A DNA stretch of 32,000 bases, from the NCBI RefSeq assembly GCF_008065095.1, contig NZ_CP042911.1, positions 1,200,001 through 1,232,000 on the forward strand, read 5' to 3'. A program made the position numbers and the translations under genes. The DNA is from Gemmata obscuriglobus (GTDB lineage Bacteria > Planctomycetota > Planctomycetia > Gemmatales > Gemmataceae). Shown here in pieces: positions 1-32,000 of this stretch (position 1 is its first letter; each line of letters starts with the position of its first letter). The notes beneath the pieces were generated by a model that worked only from the letters and a program-made list of their open reading frames with translations, did no database searches and was not told the DNA's origin.

Positions 1-1918
1 CGGGGCTGCGCGGGCTCAGGAACGTGAACCGCACCCCGAGTGTCCGACCGACTTGGGTCAGGTTTTCCGCGCTGGAGCCGTCGGCCGCGAACTTCCAGGT
101 GTCGTACAGGTCGGTCAGCAGCACGAACTTGCCGTCCGGGGTCCACTGCGCGCCGCCGTAAGGGGACGGCGTGCCCGGCGTGTCGTGCTCCTCATTGAAG
201 AACTTCACCTTCAGCTTCGCGGTGAGGTTCACCTTCTTCCCGTCGGGTACGGACACGGTGCTCCAGTCCTTACCGTCGAACGAGATCAGGTGCTTGCCGT
301 CCGGGGCGAGCGAGAAGTTCGCGGTGCTCGCGAGCGCGAGGGGCCGGGTCTCACCGCTGCGGACGTTGACCAGCGTGTAATCGCTCGGGACCGGCGAGGC
401 GTACCCGGTCATGTGCCGGTACTTGCGGTCGTCGCTGCCGACGGCCCAGTCGCCCACCGCGGGCATGGGCACGGTGACGTTCTCGTCCGACAGGTGGCGG
501 AACTGCTTCGAGTCGAGCAGCACGACCGCGCCGAAGGTGCGCGCGCGGTCGGCCCCCGCCCGGAGCTTCTGCATCGGCTGGATGTTCGCGTCCTTCCAGT
601 GCCAGATGTCGAGCTGGATGTCGTCCGGACCCGCGGGCGCGGCCGGCTGCGGCGGGCGCGGCGGGGCGGCCGAGAGGTACAGCTTCGTCCCGTCGGTCGA
701 GAAGGTGAGCGGCCCGCCGGACAGCGTCCAGCCCTTGCGGATGCCGGTGTTATCGGAGTTGAGGACCTCGTTCAGCGCGACCGGCGCCACCGGGTTGCTG
801 GTCACGCCGACGGTCGTGACGGCCCCGAGCCCGCCGACGGTCCCGAGCGGGACGCGGGTGAGCGGCTGCGGTTCGGTCTTGGCGTGGCGGTCCCACACGA
901 ACACGCGGTAGTGCGGCGGCGGGGGCGGGCTGGCGGCGGCGGGCGCCCCGGCCGGGCCGCCCTTCGGGCGCGGCGGCGGGGCCAGGTTCGGGGGCGCCAC
1001 CTGGCTGTCGTCGTACAGGAACGCCAGCTTCGTCTGCTTCTCGTCCCAGGTCAGGTTCGTGTACCGCCCCGGGCCGGACTTGAGCGGCGTGCCGCCGGTG
1101 CCGAACTTCGGGTTCAGCGTGTACACGCCGTTCTTCTCCTCGGCCTTCGAGGAAACGGTGTACACCAGGGTGAGGTCGTCGTTCGAGAGGCTGTACTCGG
1201 TCACGTCCGCGATGGTGCGGGTGGCCCCGCTGGACAGGTCGCGGATGAAGAGGTCGGAGCCGAACGTTTTGGTCGGACCCGCGGGCGGGCCTTCGCCCTT
1301 CGGCGGGAACGCCCCCCGCCCCTTGCCCTTGGCGGGCGGCGGCGCCGCGGCGGGCTGCTTGGCGTCGTCCTTATCCTTCGCGCCCTCGGCCGCCGTCGGC
1401 TTGCGGTAAATCAGGAACCCGAAGTCGGTGCCGCCGACCTGAAACGCGCCGACGCCGGAGATGCGCTCCTGTTCCTTACCGGTGGCGAGGGTCACGATCG
1501 CGAGCCCCGCCTTCGGGTACTCGTCGAGCTTCAGCTTATCGGCTTTCGCCTTATCGACTTGCGCCTTCGTCGGGGTGAGCGGCAGCAGCACCTGTTTGCC
1601 GTTGGGGGTGAACCGCGGGGCGGTCCCGAGGGCCGCGACCCCGCTCGCGCCGCCGCGCGGGAACCGGTGCTCCGCTCCGGTCGCGACTTCGCGCACGACC
1701 GCTTCGCCGTCCGCGCCGTCTGAGCCGACGAGGTACGCGAGGTACTTCCCGTCGGGAGACAGCGAAACGCCGCTCGCGCTCCGCCAGATGTCGTATTCGG
1801 CGTAGGTCAGCACCTTTTTGGCGGTCGGCTGGGCGGACAGTTGCCCGGCGGCGGCGAGCAACAGCCCGACCAACACAGCCGCAGCCAGGCCGCGTGAGGA
1901 CGCAAATGGGACGCGCAT
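1..1918 (-). CDS. Secreted beta-propeller protein, N-terminal part (S9 prolyl-oligopeptidase/DPP-IV-like or TolB-like). The 3' end runs off the left edge of the window.
   Basis: Absent from the supplied ORF track because there is no stop inside the window. The reverse strand is open from ATG (1918-1916) down to position 2. It begins MRVPFASSRGLAAAVLVGLLLAAAGQLSAQ (signal-peptide-like). Recurrent propeller-blade motifs follow: SPDGKYLAY, FTPNGKQVLL, FSTDGTKLYL, LAPDGKHLISF, WTPDGKFVLL. Third codon positions are G/C-biased. The listed 53..1723 (+) ORF is its Arg-rich antisense shadow. The catalytic domain, if any, lies outside the window, so the product is tentative. Confidence 0.75.
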   Translation of the reverse strand, partial: MRVPFASSRGLAAAVLVGLLLAAAGQLSAQPTAKKVLTYAEYDIWRSASGVSLSPDGKYLAYLVGSDGADGEAVVREVATGAEHRFPRGGASGVAALGTAPRFTPNGKQVLLPLTPTKAQVDKAKADKLKLDEYPKAGLAIVTLATGKEQERISGVGAFQVGGTDFGFLIYRKPTAAEGAKDKDDAKQPAAAPPPAKGKGRGAFPPKGEGPPAGPTKTFGSDLFIRDLSSGATRTIADVTEYSLSNDDLTLVYTVSSKAEEKNGVYTLNPKFGTGGTPLKSGPGRYTNLTWDEKQTKLAFLYDDSQVAPPNLAPPPRPKGGPAGAPAAASPPPPPHYRVFVWDRHAKTEPQPLTRVPLGTVGGLGAVTTVGVTSNPVAPVALNEVLNSDNTGIRKGWTLSGGPLTFSTDGTKLYLSAAPPRPPQPAAPAGPDDIQLDIWHWKDANIQPMQKLRAGADRARTFGAVVLLDSKQFRHLSDENVTVPMPAVGDWAVGSDDRKYRHMTGYASPVPSDYTLVNVRSGETRPLALASTANFSLAPDGKHLISFDGKDWSTVSVPDGKKVNLTAKLKVKFFNEEHDTPGTPSPYGGAQWTPDGKFVLLTDLYDTWKFAADGSSAENLTQVGRTLGVRFTFLSPRSP

Positions 1919-2234
1919 CGGAATAAACACCTCGGGCAGTGTGTCAATAGGGGTGAAATCAGGTGTAACCGGGAGAGGCACGCCAACGCCAGCAGTTTTT
2001 CCGGCTTCGCCTGCTCGCCCAATTTCCGGCGCCGGTTCAACCCGTACCGACCGCTTCCCGTGTCGCGGGCGTTCGTATTATGGAGGGAGGACGCGAAGCG
2101 ACCGGCCCTCGCCCCTCTCACTCAAAGGGAGGGGGGAAAGTCCCTTCGGAGCCGCGGCGCGGACCGGACACACCGGTACGGCGCCCGAACTCCCTCCCCG
2201 GAAGGGAGGAGCCGGGTGGGTTCTTGAGGAAATT

Positions 2235-3209
2235 ATGACCGACCCGGCGACCATCGAGAAGCTGCGCCCGAAGCTCGACCCGTTCTACCGAACGGTGGAG
2301 AGCGTGCTCATCGGCCAGCGCAAGCTGGTGGACGCGCTGCTCATCGGGCTGCTCACCGACGGCCACGTGCTGCTCGAGGGCGTCCCGGGGCTCGCCAAGA
2401 CGCTCGCGGTGCGGACCGTGGCGAGCGCGCTGGACCTGAAGTTCAGCCGCATCCAGTTCACCCCCGACCTGCTCCCGGCGGACGTGATCGGCACCCAGAT
2501 CTACAACCCGCGCACGGGCGAGTTCACCGTCAAGCAGGGGCCGGTGTTCGCGAACGTCGTGCTGGCCGACGAGATCAACCGCGCCCCCGCGAAGGTGCAG
2601 AGCGCGCTGCTCGAGGCGATGGCCGAGCGGCAGGTCACCATCGGCGAGAGCACGCTGCGGGTGCCGCGGCCGTTCTTCGTGCTCGCGACCCAGAACCCCA
2701 TCGAGCAGGAGGGCACGTACCCGCTGCCCGAGGCCCAGGTGGACCGGTTCATGCTGAAGGTGGTCATCGACTACCCGAGCCGGGCCGACGAGCTGGCGGT
2801 TCTGGACCGGATGGGCGGGCTGGGCGCCAGCGCCGACGTCGCCCCGGCCCTCGCCGCGGCGGACCTGGAGGAGTTGCGGCAGGCGGCGGACTCGGTATAC
2901 GTCGACCCGAAGGTGAAGGGGTACCTGCTCGACGTGATCCGCGCGACCCGCAAGCCGGCGGATTACGGCCTCGACATGGCCGGGCTCATCCAGCTCGGGG
3001 CCAGCACGCGGGCCGCCATCTCGCTGCTCCGGGCGGCGAAGGCGCACGCGTTCCTGGTGGGCCGCGGGTACGTCACCCCCGAGGACGTGAAGATGGTCAC
3101 GCCGGACGTGCTGCGGCACCGGCTGGTGATCTCGTTCGAGGCGGAGGCCGAGGACCTGCGGCCCGAAGCGCTCGTGAAGCAGGTGCTGGACCGGTTGCCG
3201 GTGCCGTAG
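2235..3209 (+). CDS. MoxR-family AAA+ ATPase
   Basis: ATG at 2235 lies in frame inside track ORF 1818..3209, whose upstream part looks non-coding. Walker A is LLEGVPGLAKT. Walker B region is VVLADEINRAPAKVQSALLEAM. ATQNPIEQEGTYPLPEAQVDRF is the classic MoxR/AAA_3 pattern. Confidence 0.93.
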   Translation: MTDPATIEKLRPKLDPFYRTVESVLIGQRKLVDALLIGLLTDGHVLLEGVPGLAKTLAVRTVASALDLKFSRIQFTPDLLPADVIGTQIYNPRTGEFTVKQGPVFANVVLADEINRAPAKVQSALLEAMAERQVTIGESTLRVPRPFFVLATQNPIEQEGTYPLPEAQVDRFMLKVVIDYPSRADELAVLDRMGGLGASADVAPALAAADLEELRQAADSVYVDPKVKGYLLDVIRATRKPADYGLDMAGLIQLGASTRAAISLLRAAKAHAFLVGRGYVTPEDVKMVTPDVLRHRLVISFEAEAEDLRPEALVKQVLDRLPVP

Positions 3210-3251
3210 CCGGCGCGGCGCCCCGGCCGAGCGGGGGCGGGTTCGGTGGTG

Positions 3252-3273
3252 CCCGCGCCCACCCGGGCGCGGG
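3252..3273 (+). terminator. Candidate stem-loop after the MoxR-like gene
   Basis: CCCGCGCCC (3252-3260), loop ACCC, GGGCGCGGG (3265-3273): a 9-bp perfect G/C stem 43 nt after the stop at 3209. There is no U-tract, so this is only a candidate. Confidence 0.25.
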
Positions 3274-3298
3274 AGAAGTGCGCCTTCAGGGAACGCTA

Positions 3299-4618
3299 AT
3301 GAAGCAGGTGCTGTTCGAGATCGCCGGCATCCCGATGTACGGGTTCGGGGCGATGCTGTTCGTGTGCTTCGTCGCGGTCACCGTTTGGGGATCGCGGCGG
3401 GCCAAGCGCACCGCCGACATGCCGCCCGAGCGGTTCCAGGACATGGTGATCTGGCTGTTCGTGGCCGGCATCCTGGGGGCGCGCACGCTGTACATGATCC
3501 AGTACTCGCACCACTTCCCGGACCACAGCCCGCTGGGGCTCGTGAAGGCGTTCTTCAAGATCTGGGAGGGCGGGATCATCTTCTACGGCTCCGCGCTGGG
3601 CGGGGTCATCGGGTACGCGCTCTTCTACCAGTTCGTGCTCCGCAAGCTGCACGTGTCCGGGTGGCGGCTCGCGGACGCGGTCGCGCCGCTGCTGGCGCTG
3701 GGGCTGGCGGTGGGGCGCATCGGGTGCTACCTGAACGGGTGCTGCTGGGGCCAGGTGGCGTGCGAGGAGTGCCGCCCGGTGCCGCTCGGCGCCGCCCACT
3801 TCCCGCTCTTGCCGGCCCACGCCCGCCAGCTGCTCGTCCGCGAGCAGCTGCTCCAAACCACCACCGGGTTCACGCTCGCGCCGCGCGCCCTCGGGCTGAA
3901 CGACGACCCGCGGGCGGTCGTGGCGCGGGTGGAGGCGGGCTCGGCGGCCGACAAGGCCGGGGTGAAGCCCGGCGACCGCGTCACCGGCGTGAACGACGAG
4001 CCGAACTACATCGTGCTCGACCTGAGCGGCGACGACGACAAGGTGCGGGCGTACGCGGAGGCGCTGCGCGACAAGGGCGGCCAGCTCGCCACCACCCCGG
4101 ACGGCAAGTCGCGGGTGCGGTTCTCGGAGTACGACACCTACGTGAGCGCCCGCCGCCTCGTGCCCGAGCCCGCGGACGTGACCCCGTTCGTTCGCGACAA
4201 CCTCGAACTCCTCGTGGCCGAGTGGCCCCGCGGGAAGTCGGAACTCACCCTCACCGTGGACCGGGGGGCCGAGCGGCAAACGCTGCCGACGTTCGCGCCG
4301 GCGACGATCGGGCTGTACCCGACGCAGCTCTACGAGACGGTGAGCATGGTGCTGCTCATCCTCCTGCTGCTCGCGTACTACCCGTACCGGCGGCACGACG
4401 GGCAACTGATGGTGCTGCTGATGCTGGGCTACGCGGTCCACCGGTTCATCAACGAGTCGCTGCGGATCGAGCCGAACGTCGGCAGCGGGCTGACGCTCTC
4501 GCAGTGGGGCAGCGTGGTGATCGGCGGCGCCGCCGTCCTGATCGAGGTCTACCTGCGGCTCACGATGCCGTCGCCGCCGGAGCCGCTGACCCTGGTGAAC
4601 GCCCCGGACCGCCGGTAA
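3299..4618 (+). CDS. lgt: Prolipoprotein diacylglyceryl transferase (Lgt) with an enlarged, PDZ-like periplasmic insertion
   Basis: Lgt signature GRIGCYLNGCCWG and the downstream YPTQLYE motif, flanked by multiple hydrophobic helices. About 170 aa separate the two motifs and include VARVEAGSAADKAGVKPGDRVTGVN (a PDZ-type carboxylate-binding/GD segment). Start is ATG 3299; the in-frame GTG at 3278 is an alternative. Confidence 0.9.
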   Translation: MKQVLFEIAGIPMYGFGAMLFVCFVAVTVWGSRRAKRTADMPPERFQDMVIWLFVAGILGARTLYMIQYSHHFPDHSPLGLVKAFFKIWEGGIIFYGSALGGVIGYALFYQFVLRKLHVSGWRLADAVAPLLALGLAVGRIGCYLNGCCWGQVACEECRPVPLGAAHFPLLPAHARQLLVREQLLQTTTGFTLAPRALGLNDDPRAVVARVEAGSAADKAGVKPGDRVTGVNDEPNYIVLDLSGDDDKVRAYAEALRDKGGQLATTPDGKSRVRFSEYDTYVSARRLVPEPADVTPFVRDNLELLVAEWPRGKSELTLTVDRGAERQTLPTFAPATIGLYPTQLYETVSMVLLILLLLAYYPYRRHDGQLMVLLMLGYAVHRFINESLRIEPNVGSGLTLSQWGSVVIGGAAVLIEVYLRLTMPSPPEPLTLVNAPDRR

Positions 4619-4653
4619 CAGGTTTGCCGCCCCGCTCATCGAGAAGCGACCGT

Positions 4654-5217
4654 ATGGCGAAAGTGTCTTTCCGAACCGCGCTGTTCGTGTGCGCCGACGG
4701 CGCGCGGGCCGGGGCCGCGGTCGCGGCCTTCGACGCGGCGGCCGCCCGCCTCGGGATGCCGTGGCGCGGGGCCGCGACCCCGCCCCCCGCCCTCGCCGGC
4801 GTCGAGGTGGTCGTGCCGCTCGACGGCGCCGCTCCCGACGGCTGGACGGGCCGCGTCGAGAAGTGGAACGGCGCGCTCGCGCCGGACGCCGCGGCGGCGG
4901 GCCTGATCGCGCGGCTCCTGGGCGGAACCGACCAGGAGCCGAAGCCGAAGCCCGCCCCCCCGCCGCCGCCGAAGAAGGTTCACACGGTGAAGCTGAGCCG
5001 CGAGACGGCCGGCCGGAAGGGCAAGGGCGTGACGGTGGTGTCCGAACTGCCGCTGACCGAGGACGCGCTGAAGGAGCTGGCGACGAAGCTGAAGAACGCG
5101 TGCGGCACCGGCGGCACCGCGAAGGACGGGCGCATCGAGATCCAGGGCGACCACCGCGACAAGCTGCAACAGGAGCTGGAAAAGCTCGGGTACAAGGTGA
5201 AACGCGCCGGCGGATAA
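4654..5217 (+). CDS. yciH: SUI1/eIF1-family translation initiation factor (YciH-like) with a ~105-aa N-terminal extension
   Basis: The C-terminal ~80 aa, KLSRETAGRKGKGVTVVSELPLTEDALKELATKLKNACGTGGTAKDGRIEIQGDHRDKLQQELEKLGYKVKRAGG, are a clear SUI1 domain. ATG 4654 is in frame with track ORF 3364..5217, whose upstream part is the off-frame shadow of lgt. The N-terminal part is Ala-rich and is followed by a linker, KPKPKPAPPPPPKK. Confidence 0.85.
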   Translation: MAKVSFRTALFVCADGARAGAAVAAFDAAAARLGMPWRGAATPPPALAGVEVVVPLDGAAPDGWTGRVEKWNGALAPDAAAAGLIARLLGGTDQEPKPKPAPPPPPKKVHTVKLSRETAGRKGKGVTVVSELPLTEDALKELATKLKNACGTGGTAKDGRIEIQGDHRDKLQQELEKLGYKVKRAGG

Positions 5218-5220
5218 AAC

Positions 5221-5580
5221 AGGAAGAATGTTAGCCACAAAAACGCACAAAGGGCACAAAAGAAAACCGAAGAAGAAAAGGCAGCTTGGCCACAAAAACG
5301 CACAAAGGGCACAAAAGAAAACCGAAGAAGAAAAGGCAGCTTGGCCACAAAAACGCACAAAGGGCACAAAAGAAAACCGAAGAAGAAAACAACAGAGTGT
5401 GTTTAAAACACTGCTCTGGTTTTGCTCTTCGGTTTCCTTTTGTGCCCTTTGTGCGTTTTTGTGGCCAACACTCTTCTTTGCCTTCGTCTGTGGTTTCCTT
5501 TTGTGCCCTTTGTGCGTTTTTGTGGCTAACACTCTTCGGCCTTCTGCTTCCTTTTGCGGCCGTAGCTCTTCATTCTTCCT
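5221..5580. repeat. Family A composite palindrome: three 55-bp tandem units facing two to three inverted units
   Basis: Direct units lie at 5231-5285, 5286-5340 and 5341-5395: TT(A/G)GCCACAAAAACGCACAAAGGGCACAAAAGAAAACCGAAGAAGAAAAGGCAGC, with one difference between units 1 and 2. The centre is near TTTAAA at 5402-5407. Inverted units lie at 5427-5469 and 5492-5529, with a degenerate one at 5530-5580. The outer ends AGGAAGAATG (5221-5230) and CATTCTTCCT (5571-5580) are exact reverse complements. The element lies between convergent genes. Confidence 0.9.
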
Positions 5581-6037
5581 TCGTGGCCAACTCGAACAAG
5601 TGCCGGGCGGCGCGGCCGCTGATCTCGCCGTGCTTCAGCAGTTCCGCCACGATCAGCTCCACCGCCTTCCAGTTCCCGTCGTCCGCGAGCATGTACTCGA
5701 CCTTGTCGAGCATCCGCTGCTCGTACCGCTCCACCTGCCGGTCCGACTTCCGCTCCAGGGCGAGCCGCCGCACGAACCGCAGATCCTGCGCGGCCGCGTC
5801 CATCTCGTAGGTGCCCGTGCGGCGGGCCTCCGCGGCCAGGCCGCCGAGCGCGATGAGGATCTCGCGCTCCACCCAGTCGTCGGTGGGCCTGGCCGCGCCC
5901 TTCGTGAAGCGCACCTCGCCCAGCCGCTCGCGGTTGGGGAGCACGGTCACCTTGTGGATGGTCCGGCCCAGCGCCAGCGCGATCACCGCGTGCCCGGCCT
6001 CGTGGTAGGCGGTCACTTCGTCGTGCGTCGGTTCCAT
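5570..6037 (-). CDS. Stand-alone FtsH-like (M41) zinc metalloprotease domain protein, with no AAA or TM part
   Basis: Motifs are AYHEAGHAVIALALG (HEXXH), KVTVLPNRERLGEV, ALGGLAAEA and AAQDLRFVRRLA, in the order seen in the FtsH protease domain. ATG at 6037; the upstream in-frame ATG at 6091 is an alternative. The last codons and stop overlap the end of the family A palindrome. Confidence 0.7.
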   Translation of the reverse strand: MEPTHDEVTAYHEAGHAVIALALGRTIHKVTVLPNRERLGEVRFTKGAARPTDDWVEREILIALGGLAAEARRTGTYEMDAAAQDLRFVRRLALERKSDRQVERYEQRMLDKVEYMLADDGNWKAVELIVAELLKHGEISGRAARHLFELATKEE

Positions 6038-6168
6038 GAGCACCACTTTATCCCGACCGGCCGCGTGACGGAAGTTGGGCGCGACACCCATTGACGCGCC
6101 GGCCGCGGTCGCGAGAATTGGCGTGCCGCCCGTGCGGCCCCCGCCCCGATCCCTCTCAGGTGCAGTTC

Positions 6169-7197: not shown

Positions 7198-7245
7198 CCC
7201 CGGCGGGGCCGTGCCCCGTTGGGTGGCTGTTGGTTTGAAGCGTGG

Positions 7246-7266
7246 CCCGCTCGCGGAGCGAGCGGG
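7246..7266 (+). terminator. Candidate stem-loop after the DUF1080 gene
   Basis: CCCGCTCGC (7246-7254), loop GGA, GCGAGCGGG (7258-7266). It lies 49 nt after the stop and has no U-tract. Confidence 0.25.
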
Positions 7267-7348
7267 TGCGCAGCCGTGTCAGATGCCTCGGTTGCGTTAT
7301 CCGGCCCATGAGGTACTGGGGGCACTACCCAGGCTGGGTGCGAAGTCA

Positions 7349-7432
7349 CTCGTTCACGGCAGGTTCGGTCGCGTCTGTTTCTTGTTGCACAGACATTTCC
7401 ATGATGCCATAACGTGAACGCGGCGCTGGTGC
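7349..7432. repeat. Family B element, truncated or deleted derivative (B3)
   Basis: 7372-7400 CGTCTGTTTCTTGTTGCACAGACATTTCC matches the outer half of B1/B2 (TGTCTGTTTCTTGTGGCACAGACATTCC) with a few mismatches. Terminal CGTTCACG (about 7351) pairs with CGTGAACG (about 7423), as in the flanks of full copies. The inner arm is missing. Confidence 0.55.
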
Positions 7433-7489
7433 CGGCTGCCGACAACGGGTAGCCGCCTGCGGCCGATTCAGCCGGGCCAGGAGAAGGCC

Positions 7490-8323: not shown

Positions 8324-8458
8324 GGGTGCGTTTCGAAATCGCCCGGTGCGAGCGGGTCACTTCTTGTTCGCGGGCGGCACCGGGGCACGCACCGACTTGC
8401 GCCACCCGTCACCTTGGACGCCGGACGGGTGCGTGTCCCTGTGGTAGCTACGGAGCTG

Positions 8459-8512
8459 CGCGAGCGGTTGGCTTCTCGGGCGTCGTGCCGCCCGAGAAGC
8501 CAACCGCTCGCG
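8459..8512. terminator. 24-bp perfect GC-rich hairpin between convergent genes (candidate bidirectional terminator)
   Basis: CGCGAGCGGTTGGCTTCTCGGGCG (8459-8482), loop TCGTGC, CGCCCGAGAAGCCAACCGCTCGCG (8489-8512) is an exact reverse complement. It lies between the DUF1559 stop (8323) and the PNPOx-like stop (8629). Confidence 0.45.
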
Positions 8513-8628
8513 GTGATTGTGGTGGCGGGAACGTCCGGCCGTGCCGGGGTCGGAGAACCCGGGTGCGGAAACACCCGACCTACCGGTTCCCCGTTCGGCC
8601 GCGCCGGGAACGCAAGGCGCATTCCCTG

Positions 8629-9123: not shown

Positions 9124-9355
9124 AACGAGTGCCCGTGTGGAATCCCCGCCGCGACGGCGGATAGGGTGAGATGTGGCAACGCAAATCGCGGGCCGCGCCG
9201 GTGCGAGGTGTCTTCTCTCCCCCCCTTCCCTCTTCCGAACGCCCCGCGAAGTGCCGCGAGCGCGGCGCCGAAACGCGCTGTCGGTTCTCGGGGGGCTTAC
9301 GTCCCCCGCTCCCCTAACTAAGATGACACGGCACGCTCACCCCGGACGCCAACCG

Positions 9356-9676: not shown

Positions 9677-9684
9677 TTCGGGTC

Positions 9685-9800
9685 GGAAGTCACAAAGTCG
9701 AAAGTCGTAAAGTCGAAGGCACTCGGCGTTACGGTCTTCGACTTTGTCGCGTTCGACGTTACGACATCAAACGTTACGCCCTCGGTTTCGACCTCCCGGA
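9685..9800. repeat. Family E imperfect hairpin built from AAGTC-periodic motifs (E1)
   Basis: GGAAGTCACAAAGTCGAAAGTCGTAAAGTCGAAGGC (9685-9720) faces GTCTTCGACTTTGTCGCGTTCGACGTTACGAC (9734-9765). It fills the 130-bp gatC-gatA spacer. Confidence 0.65.
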
Positions 9801-9806
9801 ACAGCC

Positions 9807-11295: not shown

Positions 11296-12201
11296 ATGGA
11301 CGAGACAGAGTGGTTGACCTGTGCCGAGCCGGCCGCGATGTTGGACCGACTCGGCCCTCAGGTTAGTGTCCGCAAGCTCCGGCTGTTCGGGGCCGCCTGT
11401 TGCCGACGAGCGGAAGGTGCCAGCCAGGGGGCTCTCGTCAAACGTGGGATCGACCTCGCCTATCGACTCGCCGACGGGCCAGACATCGGGGAGGACCTCT
11501 CCCGCTTTCAGAGCGACCTCCTGTTCGAGGCGTTCTCCGGTGACGGCGAAGGCTGGCGGACGCGAGCGAATATGGCCCGCTGGCACATGGCCCTGGCCGT
11601 CTTCAACGCCCTCCAGGACAGTGACCGGTTTGTCGCAGGCGAGCGGCGACCGGTTTTCGAAGGCTATCTACAGGAGCATCACGATGACATACTCCACTTC
11701 GCCTTGTCCGCGGCCCGGACGGAAGCGGGGCCGGGAGGCAACCCTGTTTTCGACCGCCCGGACATCTGCGGCCCGGACCTGACCCGTGTGTGGATCGAGG
11801 CCGCCCAAGCAATCGCCTACCACTCGCAACCGGACGACCGGCCGCGCTTAACCCTGATCCAGGAGTTAACCGCGTCGGAGGGCCGCCAGCGGTTGCGAGA
11901 CTGGGAGACCGCGGTAGAAGTTGGCCGCCAATTCGAGGCAAAGCAACAGACCGTCCTCGTCCGTGACATCTTCGGCAACCCGTTCCGTCCCGTAAGATTT
12001 GACATGGGTTGGCTCACCGGCGCTGCCGTCAGCTTGGCCGATGCGATCTACCGGGGGCAGGCGTTTGAACGCCTCCCGGTTCTGGCCGACGCGCTGGAAG
12101 CATCGGGCTGTGACGACCCCAGCATCCTGGCTCACTGCCGAAGTGGCGCCCCACACGTCCGCGGGTGCTGGGCCGTGGACTTGGTGCTCGGGAGAAGGTA
12201 A
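11296..12201 (+). CDS. Hypothetical protein of a lineage-expanded family (N-terminal WLTC..P..ML, C-terminal HVRGCW tail)
   Basis: 301 aa. The N-terminus is MDETEWLTCAEPAAMLDRL. The C-terminus is FGNPFRPVRFDMGWLTGAAVSLADAIYRGQAFERLPVLADALEASGCDDPSILAHCRSGAPHVRGCWAVDLVLG. From memory this resembles a multi-copy planctomycete/myxobacterial family. Function is unknown. Confidence 0.7.
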   Translation: MDETEWLTCAEPAAMLDRLGPQVSVRKLRLFGAACCRRAEGASQGALVKRGIDLAYRLADGPDIGEDLSRFQSDLLFEAFSGDGEGWRTRANMARWHMALAVFNALQDSDRFVAGERRPVFEGYLQEHHDDILHFALSAARTEAGPGGNPVFDRPDICGPDLTRVWIEAAQAIAYHSQPDDRPRLTLIQELTASEGRQRLRDWETAVEVGRQFEAKQQTVLVRDIFGNPFRPVRFDMGWLTGAAVSLADAIYRGQAFERLPVLADALEASGCDDPSILAHCRSGAPHVRGCWAVDLVLGRR

Positions 12202-12225: not shown

Positions 12226-12373
12226 GCTGATACACGAACCGGCTGTTGGTGTCCGTTTTGGTTTTTGTCTTTGTGGCACAGACATTCCTGTCTGTGCGGC
12301 GCGATAAGCGCTGCACAGACAGGAATGTCTGTGCCACAAGAAATAGACATAACTAGCCGGACCGTGAATGAGG
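12226..12373. repeat. Family B REPIN-like palindromic element (B1)
   Basis: Core arms GTGGCACAGACATTCCTGTCTGTGC (12273-12297) and GCACAGACAGGAATGTCTGTGCCAC (12313-12337) are exact reverse complements with a 15-nt spacer. Each arm is itself a hairpin (CACAGACA-TTCC-TGTCTGTG). Imperfectly complementary flanks extend out to ...GATACACG / CGTGAATGAGG. Confidence 0.9.
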
Positions 12374-12380
12374 ACTACGG

Positions 12381-12481
12381 GTCAGAAGCCGTCAGGTCAG
12401 CAAGTCATAAAGTCACGAGGCTTCGCCCTACTGAATTTGTGACGTTACGACTTTCGACGAGCGGACTTCTGACGGAAGTCC
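12381..12481. repeat. Family E imperfect hairpin (E2)
   Basis: GTCAGAAG (12381-12388) pairs with CTTCTGAC (12466-12473). AAGTCATAAAGTCAC faces GTGACGTTACGACTT. It has the same AAGTC-periodic character as E1 and lies just downstream of the GT4 stop at 12492. Confidence 0.55.
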
Positions 12482-14347: not shown

Positions 14348-14408
14348 GGTGCGGTTGTGTTCTGGAGGCTGAGCGCGAACGGTGAAGGTGGCACAGGGCT
14401 CCCGCCCT

Positions 14409-14533
14409 GCGCTACGCCCGCCTCGCAACAAGTTGAAAGGCAAAAGTGCAAAGGCAAAAGGGAAAGCCGAAAGCGCCCTCACTTTTGCCTTGACACTTTT
14501 GCCTTTCAACTTGTTGCGAGCCGGGCGTACAGC
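14409..14533. repeat. Family D hairpin element inside the glycan operon
   Basis: CTCGCAACAAGTTGAAAGGCAAAAGTGCAAAGGCAAAAG (14422-14460) faces CTTTTGCCTTGACACTTTTGCCTTTCAACTTGTTGCGAG (14482-14520): 37 of 39 positions complementary, 21-nt loop. Weaker complementarity extends to 14409 and 14533. The right arm contains the last codons and stop of the upstream GT4. Confidence 0.85.
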
Positions 14534-22779: not shown

Positions 22780-22917
22780 CCGCTCCCGCGCGCGGGCCTC
22801 TCGCGCGACCGATGCGGCGTGGCTTCGGTGCGTTTCTGGAGCGCGGGCCTCTGGCCCGCTTGACCGACGCGGATCGGGGTGCTTTGCAGTCACGCCGTTA
22901 CAACCTGCGCCCGGAAG

Positions 22918-23063
22918 CTCATTCACGCCCCGGTTACTGGTGTCTGTTTTAGCTGTTGCCTTTGTGGCACAGACATTCCTGTCTGTGCGGCCTTCTCGCG
23001 CCGCACAGACAGGAATGTCTGTGCCACAAGAAACAGACACAACTTGCGGGACCGTGAATCAGG
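22918..23063. repeat. Family B REPIN-like palindromic element (B2)
   Basis: Arms GTGGCACAGACATTCCTGTCTGTGCGG (22964-22990) and CCGCACAGACAGGAATGTCTGTGCCAC (23001-23027) are exact reverse complements with a 10-nt spacer. Outer flanks CTCATTCACG...GGTGTCTGTTTT and AAGAAACAGACACAAC...CGTGAATCAGG are imperfectly complementary. The core and right flank are near-identical to B1. Confidence 0.9.
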
Positions 23064-23104
23064 CGGGCCGCAGGCCCGCGGTCCAGAGGCGCCCGGGAAC
23101 GCAC

Positions 23105-24322
23105 ATGACCCCTTTGCGGCTCGCGTGGGCCAACCTGGTGCACAAGCGCACCCGGACGCTGATCGCCGTCACCGGCGTGGCGTTCGCGGTGGTGCTGGTG
23201 TTCATGGAACTCGGGATGCTCGGCGGGGTCGGGCGCACCGCGACCATCCTCTACGACAAGCTCCAGTTCGACTTACTCATCACCTCCCGCGAGTACCTCG
23301 ACCTGAGCCGCGCGCCGGAGTTCCCGCGCGCGCGGCTGGCCCAGGCGCGCGTCGCGGGCGTCGCCGATGTCATTCCCGTGTCGTTCGGGGTTGCGGGCTG
23401 GCGGGCGCCGCGCCACGAGACGCCGTTCGGTACGACCGAGCCCGGCGGGGCGCTGAGCGTGAACATCGTCGCCGCCCCGCCGGACCGGCTCGACCGGGCC
23501 TTTGCGGTGGGGGACGGCGGCGCGTTCGGGTCCGCGGCCGAGGCCCGCGACGCCGGCCGCCGGCTCGCGCGCCTCGACACGTTCCTGCTCGACGAGCGCT
23601 CCAAGCCAGAGTTCGGCGACGCGGCGCAGCTCCGGCGCCTCCCGCCGGACGGCAGCGGCGGCGACCTGGTGCGCGTCAACGGCCGGCGCGCGAGCGTCGT
23701 CGGGGCCTTCAACCTCGGCACCGGGTTCAGTTGGAACGGGATGCTGCTCACGAGCGAAGAAACGTATTCCGACTTCGTGATGCGCTCCCGGGACTCCGTG
23801 AGCTTCGGTCTGGTGCAGCTCGAACCGGGGGCCGACCCGGGTGCGGCCCGGCAGCGGCTCCGGGCGGTGCTGCCGCCGGACGTGAAGGTGTACACGCGGG
23901 CCGAGATCAACGCGGACGAGCGCGGCTACTGGCTCCGGCTCACCTCGATCGGGCAGTTCCTGCTGGTGGCGGTGGTGCTGGCGGTCGTGGTCGGGGTGAT
24001 CTTCGTGTACCAGATGATGGCCGCCGACATCCGGAACATGCTGCCCGAGTACGCGACGGTGAAGGCCCTGGGCTACCGCCCGCCGTACCTGACCGGCGTG
24101 GTGCTGGGGCAGGCGGTGCTGCTCGCGGTGTTCGGGTACGTCCCGGGTTTCGCCGCTGCGCTCGGGCTGTATTATGTGGCGAGGAACTTCGGCGGCATCC
24201 CGACCCAAATGACGGTCGAGATCGCCGCCGGCGTGCTCGTGCTGACGTGCGTCATGTGCCTCGCGTCCGGGCTGCTGGCCGTGCGGAAGGTCCACACGGC
24301 GGACCCGGCGGATCTGTTTTAA
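23105..24322 (+). CDS. ABC exporter permease, FtsX/MacB-type, DevC-like (paralog 1)
   Basis: ATG 23105. The N-terminus is MTPLRLAWANLVHKRTRTLIAVTGVAFAVVLV (TM1), followed by a large extracytoplasmic domain. The C-terminal three-helix FtsX module has LPEYATVKALGYRPPYL and ends LLAVRKVHTADPADLF. 405 aa. Confidence 0.87.
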   Translation: MTPLRLAWANLVHKRTRTLIAVTGVAFAVVLVFMELGMLGGVGRTATILYDKLQFDLLITSREYLDLSRAPEFPRARLAQARVAGVADVIPVSFGVAGWRAPRHETPFGTTEPGGALSVNIVAAPPDRLDRAFAVGDGGAFGSAAEARDAGRRLARLDTFLLDERSKPEFGDAAQLRRLPPDGSGGDLVRVNGRRASVVGAFNLGTGFSWNGMLLTSEETYSDFVMRSRDSVSFGLVQLEPGADPGAARQRLRAVLPPDVKVYTRAEINADERGYWLRLTSIGQFLLVAVVLAVVVGVIFVYQMMAADIRNMLPEYATVKALGYRPPYLTGVVLGQAVLLAVFGYVPGFAAALGLYYVARNFGGIPTQMTVEIAAGVLVLTCVMCLASGLLAVRKVHTADPADLF

Positions 24323-24324
24323 AG

Positions 24325-24596
24325 GCCGAGAAGGCCGTGAAAGCCGTGTTCACCGCAGAGGAGGTTCCCTCCGCGAAGCGGGAGGGGTTCACGAGAGGGC
24401 GCAGAGAGAAAGGCAGAGAAAACAGCAGGCAGTGAGAGAATGCACGAGAAGAGCATTCACCGCCGCCGGGAGACCGCGGAGCTGTTCTCGCTCACAACTT
24501 TTCTTTGCCTTTCTCTCTGCGCCCTCTCGTGAACCCCTCCCGCTTCGCGGAGGGAACCTCCTCTGCGGTGAACACGGCCTTCTGTCTTTCTCCGGT
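24325..24596. repeat. Family C element: 73-bp perfect inverted repeat with a 90-bp partly self-complementary spacer
   Basis: GCCGTGTTCACCGCAGAGGAGGTTCCCTCCGCGAAGCGGGAGGGGTTCACGAGAGGGCGCAGAGAGAAAGGCA (24343-24415) is the exact reverse complement of 24506-24578. The spacer contains GAATGC...GCATTC and CAGTGAG...CTCAC pairs. The element occupies essentially the whole devC1-devC2 spacer (24323-24606). Confidence 0.92.
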
Positions 24597-24606
24597 TCTC
24601 TGATTT

Positions 24607-25813
24607 ATGCGTCCTCCACCCGTACCGCTGGCCTGGAAGAACCTGACGCACGACCGGGTGCGGTTCGGGCTGTTCGCCTCGGGCATCGGGTTCGCCGTGG
24701 TGCTGATGGGCGTGCAGTACGGGATCATGAACGCCATGCTGGACAGCAACACCGTGCTGATCGAGCGGCTCAAGGGGGACATCGTCCTCATCAACCCGAA
24801 CAAGGCGTCGCTGCTGTACCGCGAGGGGGTGTCGCGGCGGCGCATCGCCGAGGCGGAAGGCGTCGCCGGGGTGGCGAGCGCGCACCCGGTGTTCGTGGAG
24901 TATTCGACGGCCGCGCTCCGTCACACCGCCGACGATCCGGCCGCCCGCACCAGCACCCGACGGGTGCGGGTCATCGGCGTCGACCCGAACGCCGACCTGT
25001 TAAACCTCCCCGGGGTGTCGGCGGACGACTGGCGCGAACTCAACACGCCCGGGACCGCCCTTTATGACCGCGCGAGCCGGGCGCACCCGGACCGGACGCG
25101 GCACCCGGGCGAGTCGGTGTTCGGAAAGCTGGCCCCCGGAACGCTGACCGAACTGGCGGGCCGCGACGTTCGGCTGGTGGCCGGGTTCGAAATGGGGTTC
25201 GATTTCGGCACCGACGGCAGCGTGGTCGTCGGCGACCGCACCTTCTCGCAGTGGGTGCGCGAGCCGTACTACCCGATGAGCCCGCTGGCGGAGGCCGACA
25301 TCGGGGTGGTGAAGTTGCGGCCCGGGGCCGACCCCCGCGCGGTCAAGGCCGCGCTCCAGGCGAAGTTCGCTCCGGGCGGTGACGTGCTGGTCCTCACGCG
25401 CGCCGAGATGGTGTCGCGCGAGAAGGGGTTCTGGTGGAGCAACACGCCGATCGGGTTCGCGTTCGGCGCCGGCGTGCTGCTGGGGTTCGTGGTCGGGATG
25501 GTGATCTGCTACCAGATCCTCGCGAGCGACGTGGCCGACCACCTGCCCGAGTACGCGACGCTCAAGGCCATCGGTTACACGAACCGCTACCTGAGCTGGG
25601 TCGTGCTGCAGGAGGCGCTCGTCCTCGCGGTGGCCGGGTTCGCCCCCGGGATCGTGGTCACCTTCGGTACTTATCTTCTGCTCACCGACCTGACCGGTTT
25701 GCCGATGATACTGAGGCCGGCGCGGTTCGCTCTGGTGCTGGCGCTGACCGTCGTGATGTGCGCCGCGTCCGGGCTGCTCGCGGTGAGCAAGGTCAAGAAG
25801 GTGGACCCCGCCG

Positions 25814-25824
<11 letters not shown>
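24607..25824 (+). CDS. ABC exporter permease, FtsX/MacB-type, DevC-like (paralog 2)
   Basis: The N-terminus is MRPPPVPLAWKNLTHDRVRFGLFASGIGFAVVLM. The C-terminal module has LPEYATLKAIGYTNRYL and ends LLAVSKVKKVDPADVF. Also 405 aa and collinear with paralog 1. Confidence 0.87.
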
Positions 25825-27226
<1,402 letters not shown>

Positions 27227-27320
27227 TGAAGAGGTTGTTGCGAATCGAAAGGAGAGGAGAAGCGTTCGAGACGAGCCCGGCGTGACGGCACTGCGATCCG
27301 CTGGAAAACGAGCCGGGCGT

Positions 27321-27554
27321 TCAGGATACGGACGGATTCGGTTGAGTTGCCAGTAACTCGCCGATGACGCGCCGGAGCATTTGCCCGGTGGTCATGCCGC
27401 GCTTACTCGCGGCCGCTTCCAGTTCCATTGCCTGCCACAGCGGCAACAGCAGGGCCAGTTCGACGACCTCTTGGTCGGTACGGGCGGGCGCTGAAACGGC
27501 GTCGAACAGCGGTTGCACGGCGTCACCTGTCCTGGAAGGCGTGTACGGCAGCAT
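27321..27554 (-). CDS. Small hypothetical protein, possibly ribbon-helix-helix-like
   Basis: 77-aa ORF. The segment VELALLLPLWQAMELEAAASKRGMTTGQMLRRVIGELL has a strand-helix-helix feel. There is no strong motif, so coding status is uncertain. Confidence 0.35.
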   Translation of the reverse strand: MLPYTPSRTGDAVQPLFDAVSAPARTDQEVVELALLLPLWQAMELEAAASKRGMTTGQMLRRVIGELLATQPNPSVS

Positions 27555-28044
27555 TTGCCACCAGAATCACGGGTTACTCGCGCCCTCGCATCGCCCGCTA
27601 CGGGCTCACAACCGTTCGGTTCGCTTACTACACCGACGAAAAACGTTCAGCCTCATGCTGACGCGATCGTGAGTAGCTTGGTGGACCGGGTGGTTCAGTC
27701 GAGAGGTCGCGTTTTACATTAGTGCAAGCCGGGTGCCGCGAAGGGAAATCGCCCCGTGATTTTCATTCGACCGCGGAAAACGCAGCTTTTTTGTATTGCG
27801 GCCTTGTCACAACTGCGGTCTCTTCTTTTCGCTCACCGCTCACTCCGCGCGCACTTTATGTCAGAACGCGAGCAGCTATTTCCGCGAACATCAAATCCCT
27901 TCCGAAAACCCTGACGAACGGGAGCCGTCGCCGCTTCTGGTAAATATGGCAATTGTGTCGGCGGTGTGCATTTTTTGCAACGCACCCACTCCGTGCTACA
28001 TTCAAATTGACTGCGTAGTGCGGATCGGACGGGAGCGGCCACAC

Positions 28045-28578
28045 ATGCTCTTTGCTAACATAATGGAAACGGTCAAGATTTGGACCGCCGGCCACCTGCC
28101 GATCACGGTCGGCGGGTGCGTCGCCGCTCTTGTGCTGCTGTTCTTGGTGCTCAACACATCCCGGCGGCGACAGGGGTTGGACCCGTCGAAGCTGCAAGCC
28201 ACCGGTGCGCTCAATGCGGTCACCGGTGAGAAGTCGCTGAACTGGGACCCGCCGGAGCAGTCCTACGCGGACCGGCGCGCCGCGACGCGGCGCGAGGGGC
28301 AACCGGTCCGGGTGCTGCTCGCGGCGGCGACGTTCCGCAACGGGGCCGGCGACGGGTACGTCATCGACCGCTCGACCGGGGGGCTGAAGCTCGCCACGCA
28401 GTCGGCGCTGCCCCCGGGCAGTCTCGTCCAGGTGCGGGCCGTGGACGCCCCGGACACCATCGGGTTCGTGACGCTCGTCGTGCGGAGCTGCCGCAAGAAC
28501 GGGGCGCAGGACTACTTCGAACTCGGGTGCGAGTTCGAGCAGACCCCGCCGTGGAACGTGCTCCTGCTGTTCGGGTGA
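28045..28578 (+). CDS. Membrane-anchored PilZ-domain protein (putative c-di-GMP receptor)
   Basis: ATG 28045 (alternative 28063). TM helix is LPITVGGCVAALVLLFLVL. PilZ motifs are RRAATRR (RxxxR) and, about 27 aa later, DRSTGG (DxSxxG). The upstream part of track ORF 27796..28578 looks non-coding and is lower in GC. Confidence 0.75.
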   Translation: MLFANIMETVKIWTAGHLPITVGGCVAALVLLFLVLNTSRRRQGLDPSKLQATGALNAVTGEKSLNWDPPEQSYADRRAATRREGQPVRVLLAAATFRNGAGDGYVIDRSTGGLKLATQSALPPGSLVQVRAVDAPDTIGFVTLVVRSCRKNGAQDYFELGCEFEQTPPWNVLLLFG

Positions 28579-28591
28579 GCGACACAGAATC

Positions 28592-28797
28592 AAGGCAGTT
28601 CGGCCACAAAAGAAAACCGAGGAAGCAAAGGCAGTTCGGCCACAAAAAAGCACAAAGGGCACAAAAGAAAACCGAAGACGAAGACAAAAGACGTGTTTTG
28701 AACTCACTCTTCTGTCTTCGTCTTCGGTTTTCTTTTGTGCCCTTTGTGCTTTTTTGCGGCCACTCCTCATTCTGCCTTTTTCCTCGTGGCCACCCTG
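28592..28797. repeat. Family A palindromic element, second locus (A')
   Basis: GGCCACAAAAAAGCACAAAGGGCACAAAAGAAAACCGAAGACGAAGACA (28638-28686) faces 28713-28761 with 48 of 49 positions complementary and a 26-nt loop. Partial extra units lie on both sides. The core differs from the 5231-5395 units at about 2 of 43 positions. It again lies between convergent genes. Confidence 0.9.
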
Positions 28798-28800
28798 ACT

Positions 28801-30693: not shown

Positions 30694-31135
30694 TTCGCAC
30701 CTCGAATGACAGTACGGCCCAGGTGTATCGGCAAATGGGGAATGGCGGGTTCGCGCGGAATGCGCAAGTTTGGCGTTTTTGGGGCGACAGAGTTGCGCGC
30801 CCCGCCGCCCGTACCGCGCGAGTGGCATCCCTCTCAACACATCACGTCTGTTCAGTGCCGAGCAGCCGCGATGTCGCGACGTGTTTGGCCCCGGGGAATC
30901 GGGTGCGGGGCGGCTTCGGTTTTTTCGGCCCGCGGGTGGCCTTCCGATACCGCCCCAGGTTCGCACCCCGGGCCGGCTCCTTGTGCCATTCGGCCATCGG
31001 CCCGACCGACCACGCTCCCAGACCCGCCCATGTTTCGACCGGAACGGCGATCCACGGTCCCGGGCACGCACCCGACACTTCCAACGCCAGGTGGTAGGCG
31101 GATTACGAACGAACCGCTCCGTATCACGCAAGACC

Positions 31136-31279
31136 GAGAACCCGGTGAGCCTGTTCGACCTGGACGCAGCCGCCCAGCACCGGCTCGGGCTGGACCACGA
31201 GAAGTTGACCTTCAAGTTCCAACTCGACACGCGACTCACGGCCGTGGAGCCCGCGCACCCGGTAACGGCGATCCTGGCG
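31136..31279 (+). pseudogene. Relic of the C-terminus of a DUF1501 (sulfatase-fold) protein
   Basis: The translation [48 protein letters not shown] resembles the conserved DUF1501 tail (..[37 protein letters not shown], recalled from memory). There is no matching upstream body, no start and no proper stop. Confidence 0.4.
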
Positions 31280-31312
31280 TGGCCGTGCTTCAGGGTGGGC
31301 GAGCGCATGCGG

Positions 31313-32000
31313 TCAGGCTTCCGGGTCCGGGTTCCACCAGCACGGCCCTTTGTCGCGCCGCGCGTCGATTGCGCGGCGCCGGATGTCCTCCATTTCCTTC
31401 GCCTCAAGCGGCCGGAACGACCGCGCCGCGGCGAACGCCGCGTCCTGCTCGTTCGGGTAGCTCAGCCCCAACAAAGCGACGTCGGGGTTCAGTGTGAGCG
31501 TGTAGTGCAGGCACTCGGCGACGGCGAGCCGGGGCAACGTTGCGCTCGCGTCGTCCGTGCCGCCGCTCGACACCTTGCCGCGCGGCCGGGATTTGAGCGG
31601 CTGGTTGTAGCCGCTCGTGTCACCGACCAGTTTGCCCGCGCCGAAGGTCTTGAAACACACCGTTCCCACCCCGAGCGACTGCGCGAGCGGGAGCACGTCC
31701 GTAACGTACCGCGAATCCACGAACGGCCCGAGCGGGAACATCACCACATCGCACACACCGGCGTGGAGGGCCGCGAGCAGCACGTCCGGGTTGTGCGACG
31801 AGATGCCGCGGAACCGACACTTACCCCTTCTGACAGCGTCGGCGAGTTGGTCGAACCCGCCGCCGGGAGCGCACTGGCGGTCGAACGCGTCCCGCTCCGA
31901 GAGGTTGTGGAACACGAACGCGTCGGTGTGATCCAACCCGAGGCGCGCGAGCGAGCCGTCGATTTGCGGCCCGACGGGCTGTTCGGGGTGGTCGATTTTG
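31313..32000 (-). CDS. Aldo/keto reductase family oxidoreductase. The 5' end runs off the right edge of the window.
   Basis: The frame is open from 31999 to the stop at 31313. Upstream of the track's TTG at 31936 it continues [33 protein letters not shown] (the typical AKR SL.RLG.D..D....H block), then [13 protein letters not shown]...FPLGPF...[15 protein letters not shown]. Confidence 0.8.

Follow-up and report, generated by a model that had tools for sequence, protein, structure and literature searches.

We analysed a 32,000-nt stretch of the Gemmata obscuriglobus genome (assembly GCF_008065095.1, contig NZ_CP042911.1, positions 1,200,001 to 1,232,000 of the forward strand), referred to here as the window, together with loci from related genomes that are designated by L numbers, and we describe the hairpin-forming repeats that occupy its intergenic spacers. 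The window and its relatives carry dozens of families of non-coding, hairpin-forming dispersed repeats that belong to two structural classes. The GC content of the window is about 70%. Pfam searches identify among its encoded proteins a DUF1559/N-methyl protein, GatC and GatA, glycosyltransferases, and a DevC-type ATP-binding cassette (ABC) system. DUF1559/N-methyl proteins are typical of planctomycetes, and the nearest proteins come from Gemmata: GatA is 99% identical to that of Gemmata sp. JC717, and the DUF1080 protein of the window shares 97% identity with that of G. algarum JC673. Genes were called with a codon log-likelihood model trained on Pfam-confirmed open reading frames (ORFs), and these calls, together with the Pfam matches, agree with the spacers given in a preliminary description of the same DNA.

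That description had listed nine hairpin elements. An inverted-repeat scan and direct reading of the sequence agree in placing the elements at the positions that it had given. When RNA folds were compared to those of dinucleotide shuffles, seven elements proved to be very stable hairpins (z-scores of -8.5 to -20.2), namely A1, A2, B1, B2, C, D, and a separate GC hairpin. E1 is moderately stable (-4.7) and E2 weakly so (-2.45), and B3 is a mere fragment (+1.2). The number of occupied spacers, reported as 7 of 16, is eight by the description's own list, and the five families that it recognized are too few, since further GTGG-footed units are present at 7242-7266 and 14388-14411 and an outer doublet surrounds B2. 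The right arm of element D overlaps, over 24 nt, the 3' end of a gene whose stop is at 14506.

Family A is represented by two elements. A1 (5223-5537), as revealed by the inverted-repeat scan, is a composite foldback with 55-63-nt units, three of them forward and two reverse. The forward units lie at about 5231-5285, 5286-5340, and 5341-5395, and are separated by an apical loop (about 5396-5413) from the reverse units at about 5414-5476 and 5477-5537. Its minimum free energy is -183 kcal/mol (z -17.2). A1 occupies the convergent spacer between a SUI1-domain gene (stop 5217) and an M41-like gene (stop 5570), beginning 6 nt past the stop at 5217, and family A copies in general fill the spacers between stop codons. 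Beyond A1, a degenerate unit tail (5538-5590) covers the M41-like stop codon. A2 (28602-28761; z -17.6) consists of a partial forward unit (28602-28637), a forward unit (28638-28691), and a reverse unit (28708-28761), and lies in the convergent spacer between a PilZ gene and a thiamine pyrophosphate (TPP)-enzyme gene. The GC content at A1 and A2 is 0.45-0.48, compared to about 0.70 elsewhere in the window. Family A arms are built as arrays of 55-63-nt units with the pattern GGCCAC-A5-6-GCAC-AAA-GGGCAC-AAAAG-AAAACC-GAAGA, in which A-tracts recur about every 9-10 nt in a genome of 70% GC, and runs of A5-6 and T5-6 stand on either side of the inner stem. In every copy the forward units come first (+-, ++-, +--); the order -+ never occurs.

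A full-length version of family A, 350-400 nt long and including the family A core, is found in two Gemmata genomes that are more distant; purines predominate in its 5' arm and pyrimidines in its 3' arm. It occupies the same spacer between the SUI1 and M41 genes as well as a PcRGLX-MFS spacer, with two loci in SH-PL17. Set against this full-length hairpin, the short A copies of the window look like trimmed or re-duplicated derivatives. The SUI1-M41 spacer holds family A in 4/4 genomes examined; the site is ancient, and family A has been kept there across Gemmata species. The number of units has changed nonetheless: the orthologous A1 has 3+2 units in the window versus 1+1 in G. algarum JC673, where the flanks are about 95% identical. 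At least five differences between the two orthologues are mirrored on both arms, including GGCCAC/GTGGCC in the window versus GGCCGC/GCGGCC in JC673 and AAAGGGCAC/GTGCCCTTT versus AAAAAGCAC/GTGCTTTTT. A2 is present in the window only, and the equivalent PilZ-downstream spacers of three relatives lack it. Among the G. algarum copies of family A, 14 of 55 arms match their own partner arm best, versus 1-2 expected by chance. Strong arm-to-arm homogenisation in these copies was rejected, however, since identity is 0.82 within and 0.76 between elements, a modest effect.

The genes that flank A1 call for two remarks. The ORF 3364-5217 (window 3299-5217) is probably two genes, encoding an LGT/PDZ protein and a 187-aa SUI1-domain protein; the split of 3299-5217 is backed by the codon gene model and by the database gene calls in G. 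algarum JC673. On the minus strand, the similarity of ORF 5570-6091 (about 155-173 aa) to the Peptidase_M41 (FtsH protease) domain is limited to the first half of that domain. This half-domain ORF is a stand-alone gene in four Gemmata genomes, and in the window its final codons and stop overlap the degenerate family A tail.

Family B has a different architecture, resembling that of REPINs, the hairpin-forming doublets of repetitive extragenic palindromes (REPs). An arm of 30-32 nt comprises a GTGG foot, a 9-bp stem (GCACAGACA/TGTCTGTGC), and a TTCC loop, and two such units face each other in inverted orientation across 5 nt in B1 and 8 nt in B2. B1 (12226-12373, core 12271-12339; z -13.6) carries about 45 nt of family-specific flanks and lies in a convergent spacer 3' of ORF 11296-12201. 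B2 (22917-23063, core 22962-23029; z -13.0), in which 30/30 core positions are paired, lies in the tandem spacer from HlyD to FtsX1 and is surrounded by an outer REP-like doublet with arms at 22830-22863 and 23059-23092 that are 82% complementary, each containing the sub-hairpin GCGGGCC-TCTG-GCCCGC. B3 (7373-7401) is a fragment of one family B arm without a hairpin and has weak BLAST matches to the L013 copies of family B. Direct reading reveals two further GTGG-footed REP-like units. One, solitary, is at 7242-7266 (GTGG-CCCGCTCG-CGGAG-CGAGCGGG), and its stem is identical to that of GTGTGG-REP doublets of relatives (L053, SH-PL17). The other, at 14388-14411 (GTGG-CACAGGGC-TCCC-GCCCTGCG), adjoins D and belongs to the same family as a doublet at L015:1697-1827.

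GTGG stands directly 5' of the stem in every family B copy (B1, B2, and the copies in L013, L025, L033, and L049), and related units in L012 and L021 have a GTAG foot. Relatives of family B occur in G. algarum and JC717 loci, and the family was found at 7 sites in about 0.49 Mb sampled across several genomes. In relatives, GTGTGG-TCCGCTCGC-TCCG-CGAGCGG doublets fill orthologous spacers. A 5' GT[AG]G foot defines the class 2 REPs (PMC6006769). The comparison to REPINs made in the preliminary description thus fits family B in its short palindromic unit, GT[AG]G foot, inverted doublet arrangement, and extragenic position, and on these four structural and positional features its sequence matches a REP/REPIN-like family.

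Two other observations concern repeats of this kind. In JC717 and JC673, a 1.3-kb region without convincing ORFs (L049 2941-4261 and L013 300-1300), upstream of an ABC ATPase gene, contains two family B doublets about 460 nt apart and a CCCCTCCCT-type hairpin; Rfam yields no match in this region. In addition, CCCCCTCCCT-GCA-GGGAGGGGG hairpin doublets lie within called ORFs (L016 4405-4673; L051 4076-4282 and 6926-7072). Either such repeats are tolerated within genes, or the ORF calls, both our model's and the database's, are wrong.

The remaining elements of the window are foldbacks and one isolated hairpin. C (24339-24582) has 84-nt arms that are 98% complementary, each with a sub-hairpin CCCTCCGCgaagCGGGAGGG, and a 76-nt apical region; its minimum free energy is -211 kcal/mol (z -20.2). 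It lies in the intra-operon spacer between two FtsX permease genes, and its dispersal is less well evidenced than that of family A, with one shorter relative in G. algarum (L045:2158-2272). The two FtsX/DevC-type permease genes themselves (23105-24322 and 24607-25824) are adjacent paralogues with 71-77% DNA identity over long stretches. D (14413-14529; z -13.1) has arms of GCAAAAG-type sub-repeats. Its right arm covers the last 8 codons and the stop of a glycosyltransferase gene, its outer stem includes an inverted copy of that gene's last codons, and elsewhere it was found solely as the orthologous copy in JC717. Compensatory evolution in D was considered and rejected: the 9 differences from JC717 are all on the non-coding arm and mostly weaken pairing.

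E1 (9682-9768), in the gatC-gatA intra-operon spacer, is a family E hairpin with arms of AAGTCG-type sub-repeats. E2 (12381-12473) is an imperfect, family E-like hairpin that shares its spacer with B1 and has a relative at L029:3222-3316. Arms made of runs of 7-14-nt sub-repeats characterize families D, E, and F as well as hairpins in L008 and L055. An extreme of this design is the L008 hairpin at 790-919, whose arms are pure tandem heptamers, (TTGGTCA)n. The A, C, D, and E elements measure 90-400 nt, are palindromic throughout, and contain no ORF with a coding signal. The GC hairpin (8459-8512), in the convergent spacer 8324-8628, has a perfect 24-bp stem (24/24 paired) and a 6-nt loop (z -8.5), and has no relatives among 120 sampled elements. 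Next to the spacer that holds B1 and E2, ORF 11296-12201 (301 aa), which follows gatA, has no Pfam hit. It is missing from the JC717 locus, which is otherwise 95-98% identical and has two family F hairpins in the spacer instead, and may have been inserted as one of a family of Gemmata paralogues.

The preliminary description had supposed that the elements belong to dispersed families that recur beyond the window, and this proved to be so. Using an invariant 24-mer of family A, we searched a species-representative genome collection and found matches at 47 loci, none orthologous to those of the window, that come from at least six further Gemmataceae genomes, the source genome not being among the matches. 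G. algarum JC673 accounts for 26 of the 47, and the remainder are from Gemmata sp. SMAG_U3706, Gemmata sp. IIL30, a Planctomycetia metagenome-assembled genome (MAG), a Planctomycetota MAG, and two Frigoriglobus MAGs. Since these loci share no flanking genes with the window, they are independent sites. Copies of B, E, and F, the shorter relative of C, and the REP-like unit beside D recur in the flanks of the family A loci and in six further loci.

A census of about 0.49 Mb with an ungapped inverted-repeat finder (at least 20 paired nt) returned 120 elements, roughly one per 4 kb, which form 46 sequence clusters, 12 of them with two or more members. The clusters are mostly GC-rich. Enrichment in A/T, which had been proposed as a common property, is therefore true of the elements first flagged, but applies to only 9 of the 46 families sampled. 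A purine-first arm style, also proposed as a shared feature, is seen in 7 of the 9 AT-rich families, which is not significant (p = 0.18), and no bias is apparent over all 46. Neither the family A core nor the family B core is matched exactly in viral contigs, so a phage or viral origin is unsupported, and Rfam yields only sub-threshold miRNA- or snoRNA-like hits in the window, the miRNA-like ones being due to the hairpin shape. Our literature search found no description of these repeats in Gemmata, in keeping with the suggestion that they may not have been catalogued. Gemmataceae share many dispersed families of hairpin repeats.

The elements are not distributed evenly with respect to gene orientation. 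In the window, none of the five divergent spacers contains an inverted repeat of at least 18 paired nt, in agreement with the preliminary description, and the 8 occupied spacers all fall among the 11 non-divergent spacers of 16, for which simple arithmetic, C(11,8)/C(16,8), gives 0.013. The same avoidance was reproduced at independent loci, which back it far more strongly. The 47 family A loci, which were ascertained by sequence only, comprise 21 convergent, 20 tandem, and 0 divergent contexts, 2 at the ends of called coding sequences, and 4 at contig edges. As a baseline we used the un-ascertained spacers of at least 60 nt in the same loci, 27.5% of which are divergent and 14% convergent. Against this baseline, the probability of finding 0/41 family A copies in divergent spacers is 1.8e-6, and the excess in convergent spacers is 3.6-fold (p = 2e-8).

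For the other inverted repeats, we counted elements of at least 22 paired nt in about 0.46 Mb of loci outside the window, skipping spacers that hold family A. Occupied spacers number 2/57 among divergent, 6/29 among convergent, and 26/121 among tandem spacers; divergent spacers thus differ from convergent or tandem ones taken together (32/150; Fisher p = 0.0013). In the block that is syntenic with the window, the divergent spacers contain no inverted repeat in any of five genomes. The exclusion from divergent spacers that had been proposed is therefore strong but not absolute, given that family B copies are present in the divergently flanked 1.3-kb region of JC717 and JC673. These data show that the elements are depleted from divergent spacers and enriched between convergent genes and within operons.

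Comparison of orthologous spacers reveals that the occupants change between related genomes. Between gatA and the convergent glycosyltransferase (GT) gene, the window has B1, E2, and the extra ORF, whereas JC717 has the two family F hairpins; the JC717 flanks are 95-98% identical, and homology ends exactly at both stop codons. The FtsX1-FtsX2 spacer holds three families over four genomes; the window has C, two genomes have a GTGTGG-REP doublet, and one more has a third inverted repeat. The HlyD-FtsX1 spacer contains B2 in the window versus a different GTGTGG-REP doublet in L053. In the gatC-gatA spacer, family E is present in three genomes (the window, and JC717 and L051 with co-varying arms), another family is present in L055, and essentially nothing in G18.

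Sites can also be filled or empty. At the D site, SH-PL17 and LR593886 have a 4-nt overlap between the glycosyltransferase gene and the hexapeptide-transferase gene, whereas in the window and JC717 they are 158 nt apart and separated by D and its REP-like unit. Three genomes have a giant purine/pyrimidine hairpin that the window and JC717 lack. In SH-PL17, a GC palindrome of roughly 205 nt, rich in GTAG motifs, is nested in the small apical hairpin of this giant element; it occurs at two loci (L052 about 700-930, reverse strand; L137 about 3130-3330) whose composites align over 326 nt, and it is absent from the orthologous giant elements of two other genomes. Presence and absence are thus polymorphic among relatives for D, A2, the giant hairpin, and the nested palindrome. 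Not every comparable spacer is occupied: the convergent spacer between an ABC gene and a small gene has no hairpin in four genomes, indicating that a spacer can do without one. Related genomes therefore differ by gain, loss, replacement, nesting, and change of unit number, and the family swaps at single spacers, the filled and empty sites, the nesting, and the changes in unit number with paired arms argue for duplicative elements with fast turnover.

Homology between the window and JC717 or JC673 ends within a few bases of stop codons at window positions 7207, 11268, 12503, and 28801. Together with changes in gene order, these breaks indicate that repeat-bearing spacers coincide with synteny breakpoints. 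A 4.1-kb Logan contig (L001) that is 100% identical to the window begins inside C (24549) and ends inside A2 (28665); short-read assemblies of this organism evidently break at the repeats.

To account for these observations, we propose that the elements are probably non-autonomous, duplicative repeats of the REP/REPIN, bacterial interspersed mosaic element (BIME), or miniature inverted-repeat transposable element (MITE) kind, that their positional bias arises mainly from selection against promoter disruption, and that their arms are kept complementary in part by conversion or repair. The first structural class would consist of REP/REPIN-like doublets (family B, the small GTGG-footed units, and the doublet around B2), built from two inverted units that each have an unpaired GT[AG]G foot, an 8-9-bp stem, and a 4-5-nt loop. 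The second would consist of the long foldbacks A, C, D, and E, with arms built from short sub-repeats or, in A, from tandem 55-63-nt units. A trans-acting activity would copy elements to new sites, or elements would replace one another; for the first class, the candidate mobiliser is an HUH Y1 transposase similar to the REP-associated tyrosine transposases (RAYTs). Gene conversion, unit slippage, and possibly hairpin-templated repair may then remodel elements in place, and conversion or repair of this kind would allow the two arms to stay complementary. Elements would survive where they are harmless, in transcribed, promoter-free DNA between convergent genes or between the genes of an operon, and would be purged from divergent promoter spacers. 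Since elements are nested and share spacers, preferential insertion into existing hairpins may add to the bias.

Once in place, the elements are predicted to be co-transcribed in 3' or inter-cistronic RNA and to fold into extremely stable hairpins. The family A stem of roughly 40 bp, with A5-6 before it and U5-6 after it, could plausibly serve as a bidirectional terminator or protect the 3' end. Within this explanation, genuine termination or stabilisation is possible, although we would sooner bet against it. We consider it rather unlikely that matters go further, such that Gemmataceae use a fast-turnover pool of selfish hairpins as their main punctuation of transcript ends and operons. In that case, the presence of a long hairpin at a given spacer would be conserved and not its sequence, the arms would be kept complementary by hairpin-templated conversion and not through selection of single base pairs, and the foldbacks with a purine-first and a pyrimidine-second arm, made of phased A-tract sub-repeats, would be a distinct, lineage-specific class, perhaps mobilised without target-site duplication.

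Several results weigh against the view that these are mobile repeats placed by selection on promoters. With IS608 TnpA and E. coli RAYT sequences as probes, phmmer found no Y1-like ORF or RAYT in the fetched loci, which comprise 4,398 ORFs. Paired B copies are separated by Arg/Pro-rich ORFs that look spurious and were rejected as a mobiliser. A frameshifted remnant of an IS630-family transposase lies right beside a family A hairpin (L027 2500-3283); as a parent of family A it was likewise rejected, as it shares no terminal repeats with the adjacent A copy. No target-site duplication was seen at the D or nested-palindrome junctions, the two that were compared, both of them between fairly distant genomes. 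The persistence of A and the presence of different families at the same intra-operon sites could reflect selection for a hairpin and not mere tolerance of one. As for the transcript-level part of the proposal, the mismatches of hairpins in tandem contexts, read on the sense strand, are G.U in 63 cases versus A.C in 77, and with no excess of G.U they give no hint of RNA-level selection. In the window, a generic scan for terminators, which is blind to loops longer than 8 nt, shows no enrichment and flags none of the elements.

The first alternative to be weighed is that the hairpins are primarily host-selected punctuation, acting as bidirectional intrinsic terminators or as stabilisers of mRNA 3' ends and inter-cistronic regions, with mobility doing no more than supplying them. 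This would explain why elements begin a few nucleotides past stop codons and fill convergent spacers, the 3.6-fold over-representation of family A in such spacers, the A5-6/T5-6 runs that flank its inner stem, and the lack of enrichment of canonical terminators in the window. It would also fit the retention of A at one site across species and the presence of a hairpin in the FtsX1-FtsX2 spacer of 4/4 genomes and the gatC-gatA spacer of 4/5 despite the change of family. However, many comparable spacers are hairpin-free in every genome, the ABC-small gene spacer in four genomes among them; D splits a gene pair that overlaps in relatives; and among close strains the left arm of D has been free to decay. 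The sense strand has no bias of G.U over A.C, and families B and F lack the A-run/T-run layout of family A, having the reversed polarity with the T-rich side first. We judge it unlikely that host-selected punctuation is the primary explanation.

Alternatively, the elements might act at the level of DNA, as BIME-like sites (for gyrase or nucleoid protein binding, bent DNA, or cruciforms) that relieve supercoiling, or insulate against it, at points of convergence between transcription units. The BIMEs of E. coli, which are similarly located, bind gyrase and integration host factor. The enrichment between convergent genes, the spacing of the family A A-tracts at about 9-10 nt in a genome of 70% GC, and the strand symmetry of the mismatch types would all be compatible with such a role. 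Half of the A copies, however, are in tight tandem spacers, and families that are unrelated in sequence cannot present a single binding motif, which leaves a DNA-level role very improbable as the main explanation. The local creation and maintenance of the palindromes by replication template switching (fold-back or quasi-palindrome correction), with no transposition at all, agrees with the joint change of both arms between close genomes, the frequent best match of G. algarum A arms to their partners, the inverted copy of the host gene's last codons in the D outer stem, and the near-perfect stems whatever their apparent age, but it fails to account for nested foreign palindromes and for the recurrence of one 24-mer, and of one 350-nt composite, at dozens of loci that are unrelated and belong to several genera, so we can all but dismiss it except as maintenance on top of dispersal.

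The duplicative-repeat explanation that we favour places the Gemmata elements beside several known systems. The resemblance to the REP/BIME and REPIN-RAYT systems of E. coli and Pseudomonas lies, for family B and the small units, in the unpaired GTGG foot, the short stem-loop, and the inverted doublet arrangement; the elements are extragenic at gene ends or inside operons, clustered and nested, with several families per genome. The variable numbers of forward and reverse units in family A recall BIME mosaics, and the persistence at orthologous sites recalls REPINs. In contrast to REPs, the arms of A, C, D, and E are 50-170 nt long, are not themselves palindromic, and are A- or purine-rich rather than GC-rich, and in contrast to REPIN-RAYT systems, no cognate RAYT was found in the sampled loci. 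The planctomycetes R. baltica and Planctomyces are also reported to carry REPs with a GT[AG]G foot (PMC3733652, PMC6006769), and Y1 transposases associated with high-copy hairpins have been reported in Planctomycetes (PMC6006769, PMC3733652). Among these, the class 3 TnpA-Y1 "REPtron-like" systems have atypical high-copy hairpins with a CnGA foot and occur mainly in Planctomycetes and Acidobacteria (PMC6006769). The Gemmata elements resemble them in phylum and in being high-copy, atypical structures and not canonical REPs, a resemblance that serves as a literature lead only; neither the CnGA foot nor the transposase was found in the sampled Gemmata loci.

The elements also resemble MITEs and foldbacks, such as the Correia/NEMIS elements of Neisseria, the enterobacterial ERIC/IRU elements, RUP, and Nezha, in that they are small, non-coding, palindromic throughout, and dispersed, lie near gene ends where they are predicted to be co-transcribed, vary in presence and absence between relatives, and donate stop codons or C-terminal codons (D and the A1 tail). 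Differing from MITEs, no target-site duplication was seen at the two junctions compared and no parent insertion sequence with matching ends in the sampled loci, and their arms are arrays of short sub-repeats or tandem 55-63-nt units that change in concert. Bidirectional intrinsic terminators share with them a stable stem just past convergent stops and, in family A, an A-run before and a T-run after the inner stem. However, the Gemmata stems are 40-85 bp long as opposed to 5-15 bp, several families have no T-runs, and in family A the T-run pairs with the A-run, with an outer GGCCAC/GTGGCC clamp as a cap.

The hairpin repeats of Gemmata thus appear to be a local version of the REP/REPIN/MITE-type repeats known from other bacteria, and one that is apparently uncatalogued. 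The unusual cell biology of Gemmata has been studied, but to our knowledge its non-coding genome has barely been described. With about one hairpin repeat per 4 kb and dozens of families, assembly breaks and synteny breakpoints that fall exactly at stop codons follow, and gene calls are affected because the repeats donate stop codons and C-terminal codons. The GTGG-footed families lead to the prediction of a RAYT-type transposase, and the concerted changes of arms, along with the varying number of units, make these repeats a natural system in which the maintenance of long palindromes in bacteria can be studied. If the elements do terminate or stabilise transcripts, they would set operon boundaries in a GC-rich phylum in which canonical terminators are scarce.

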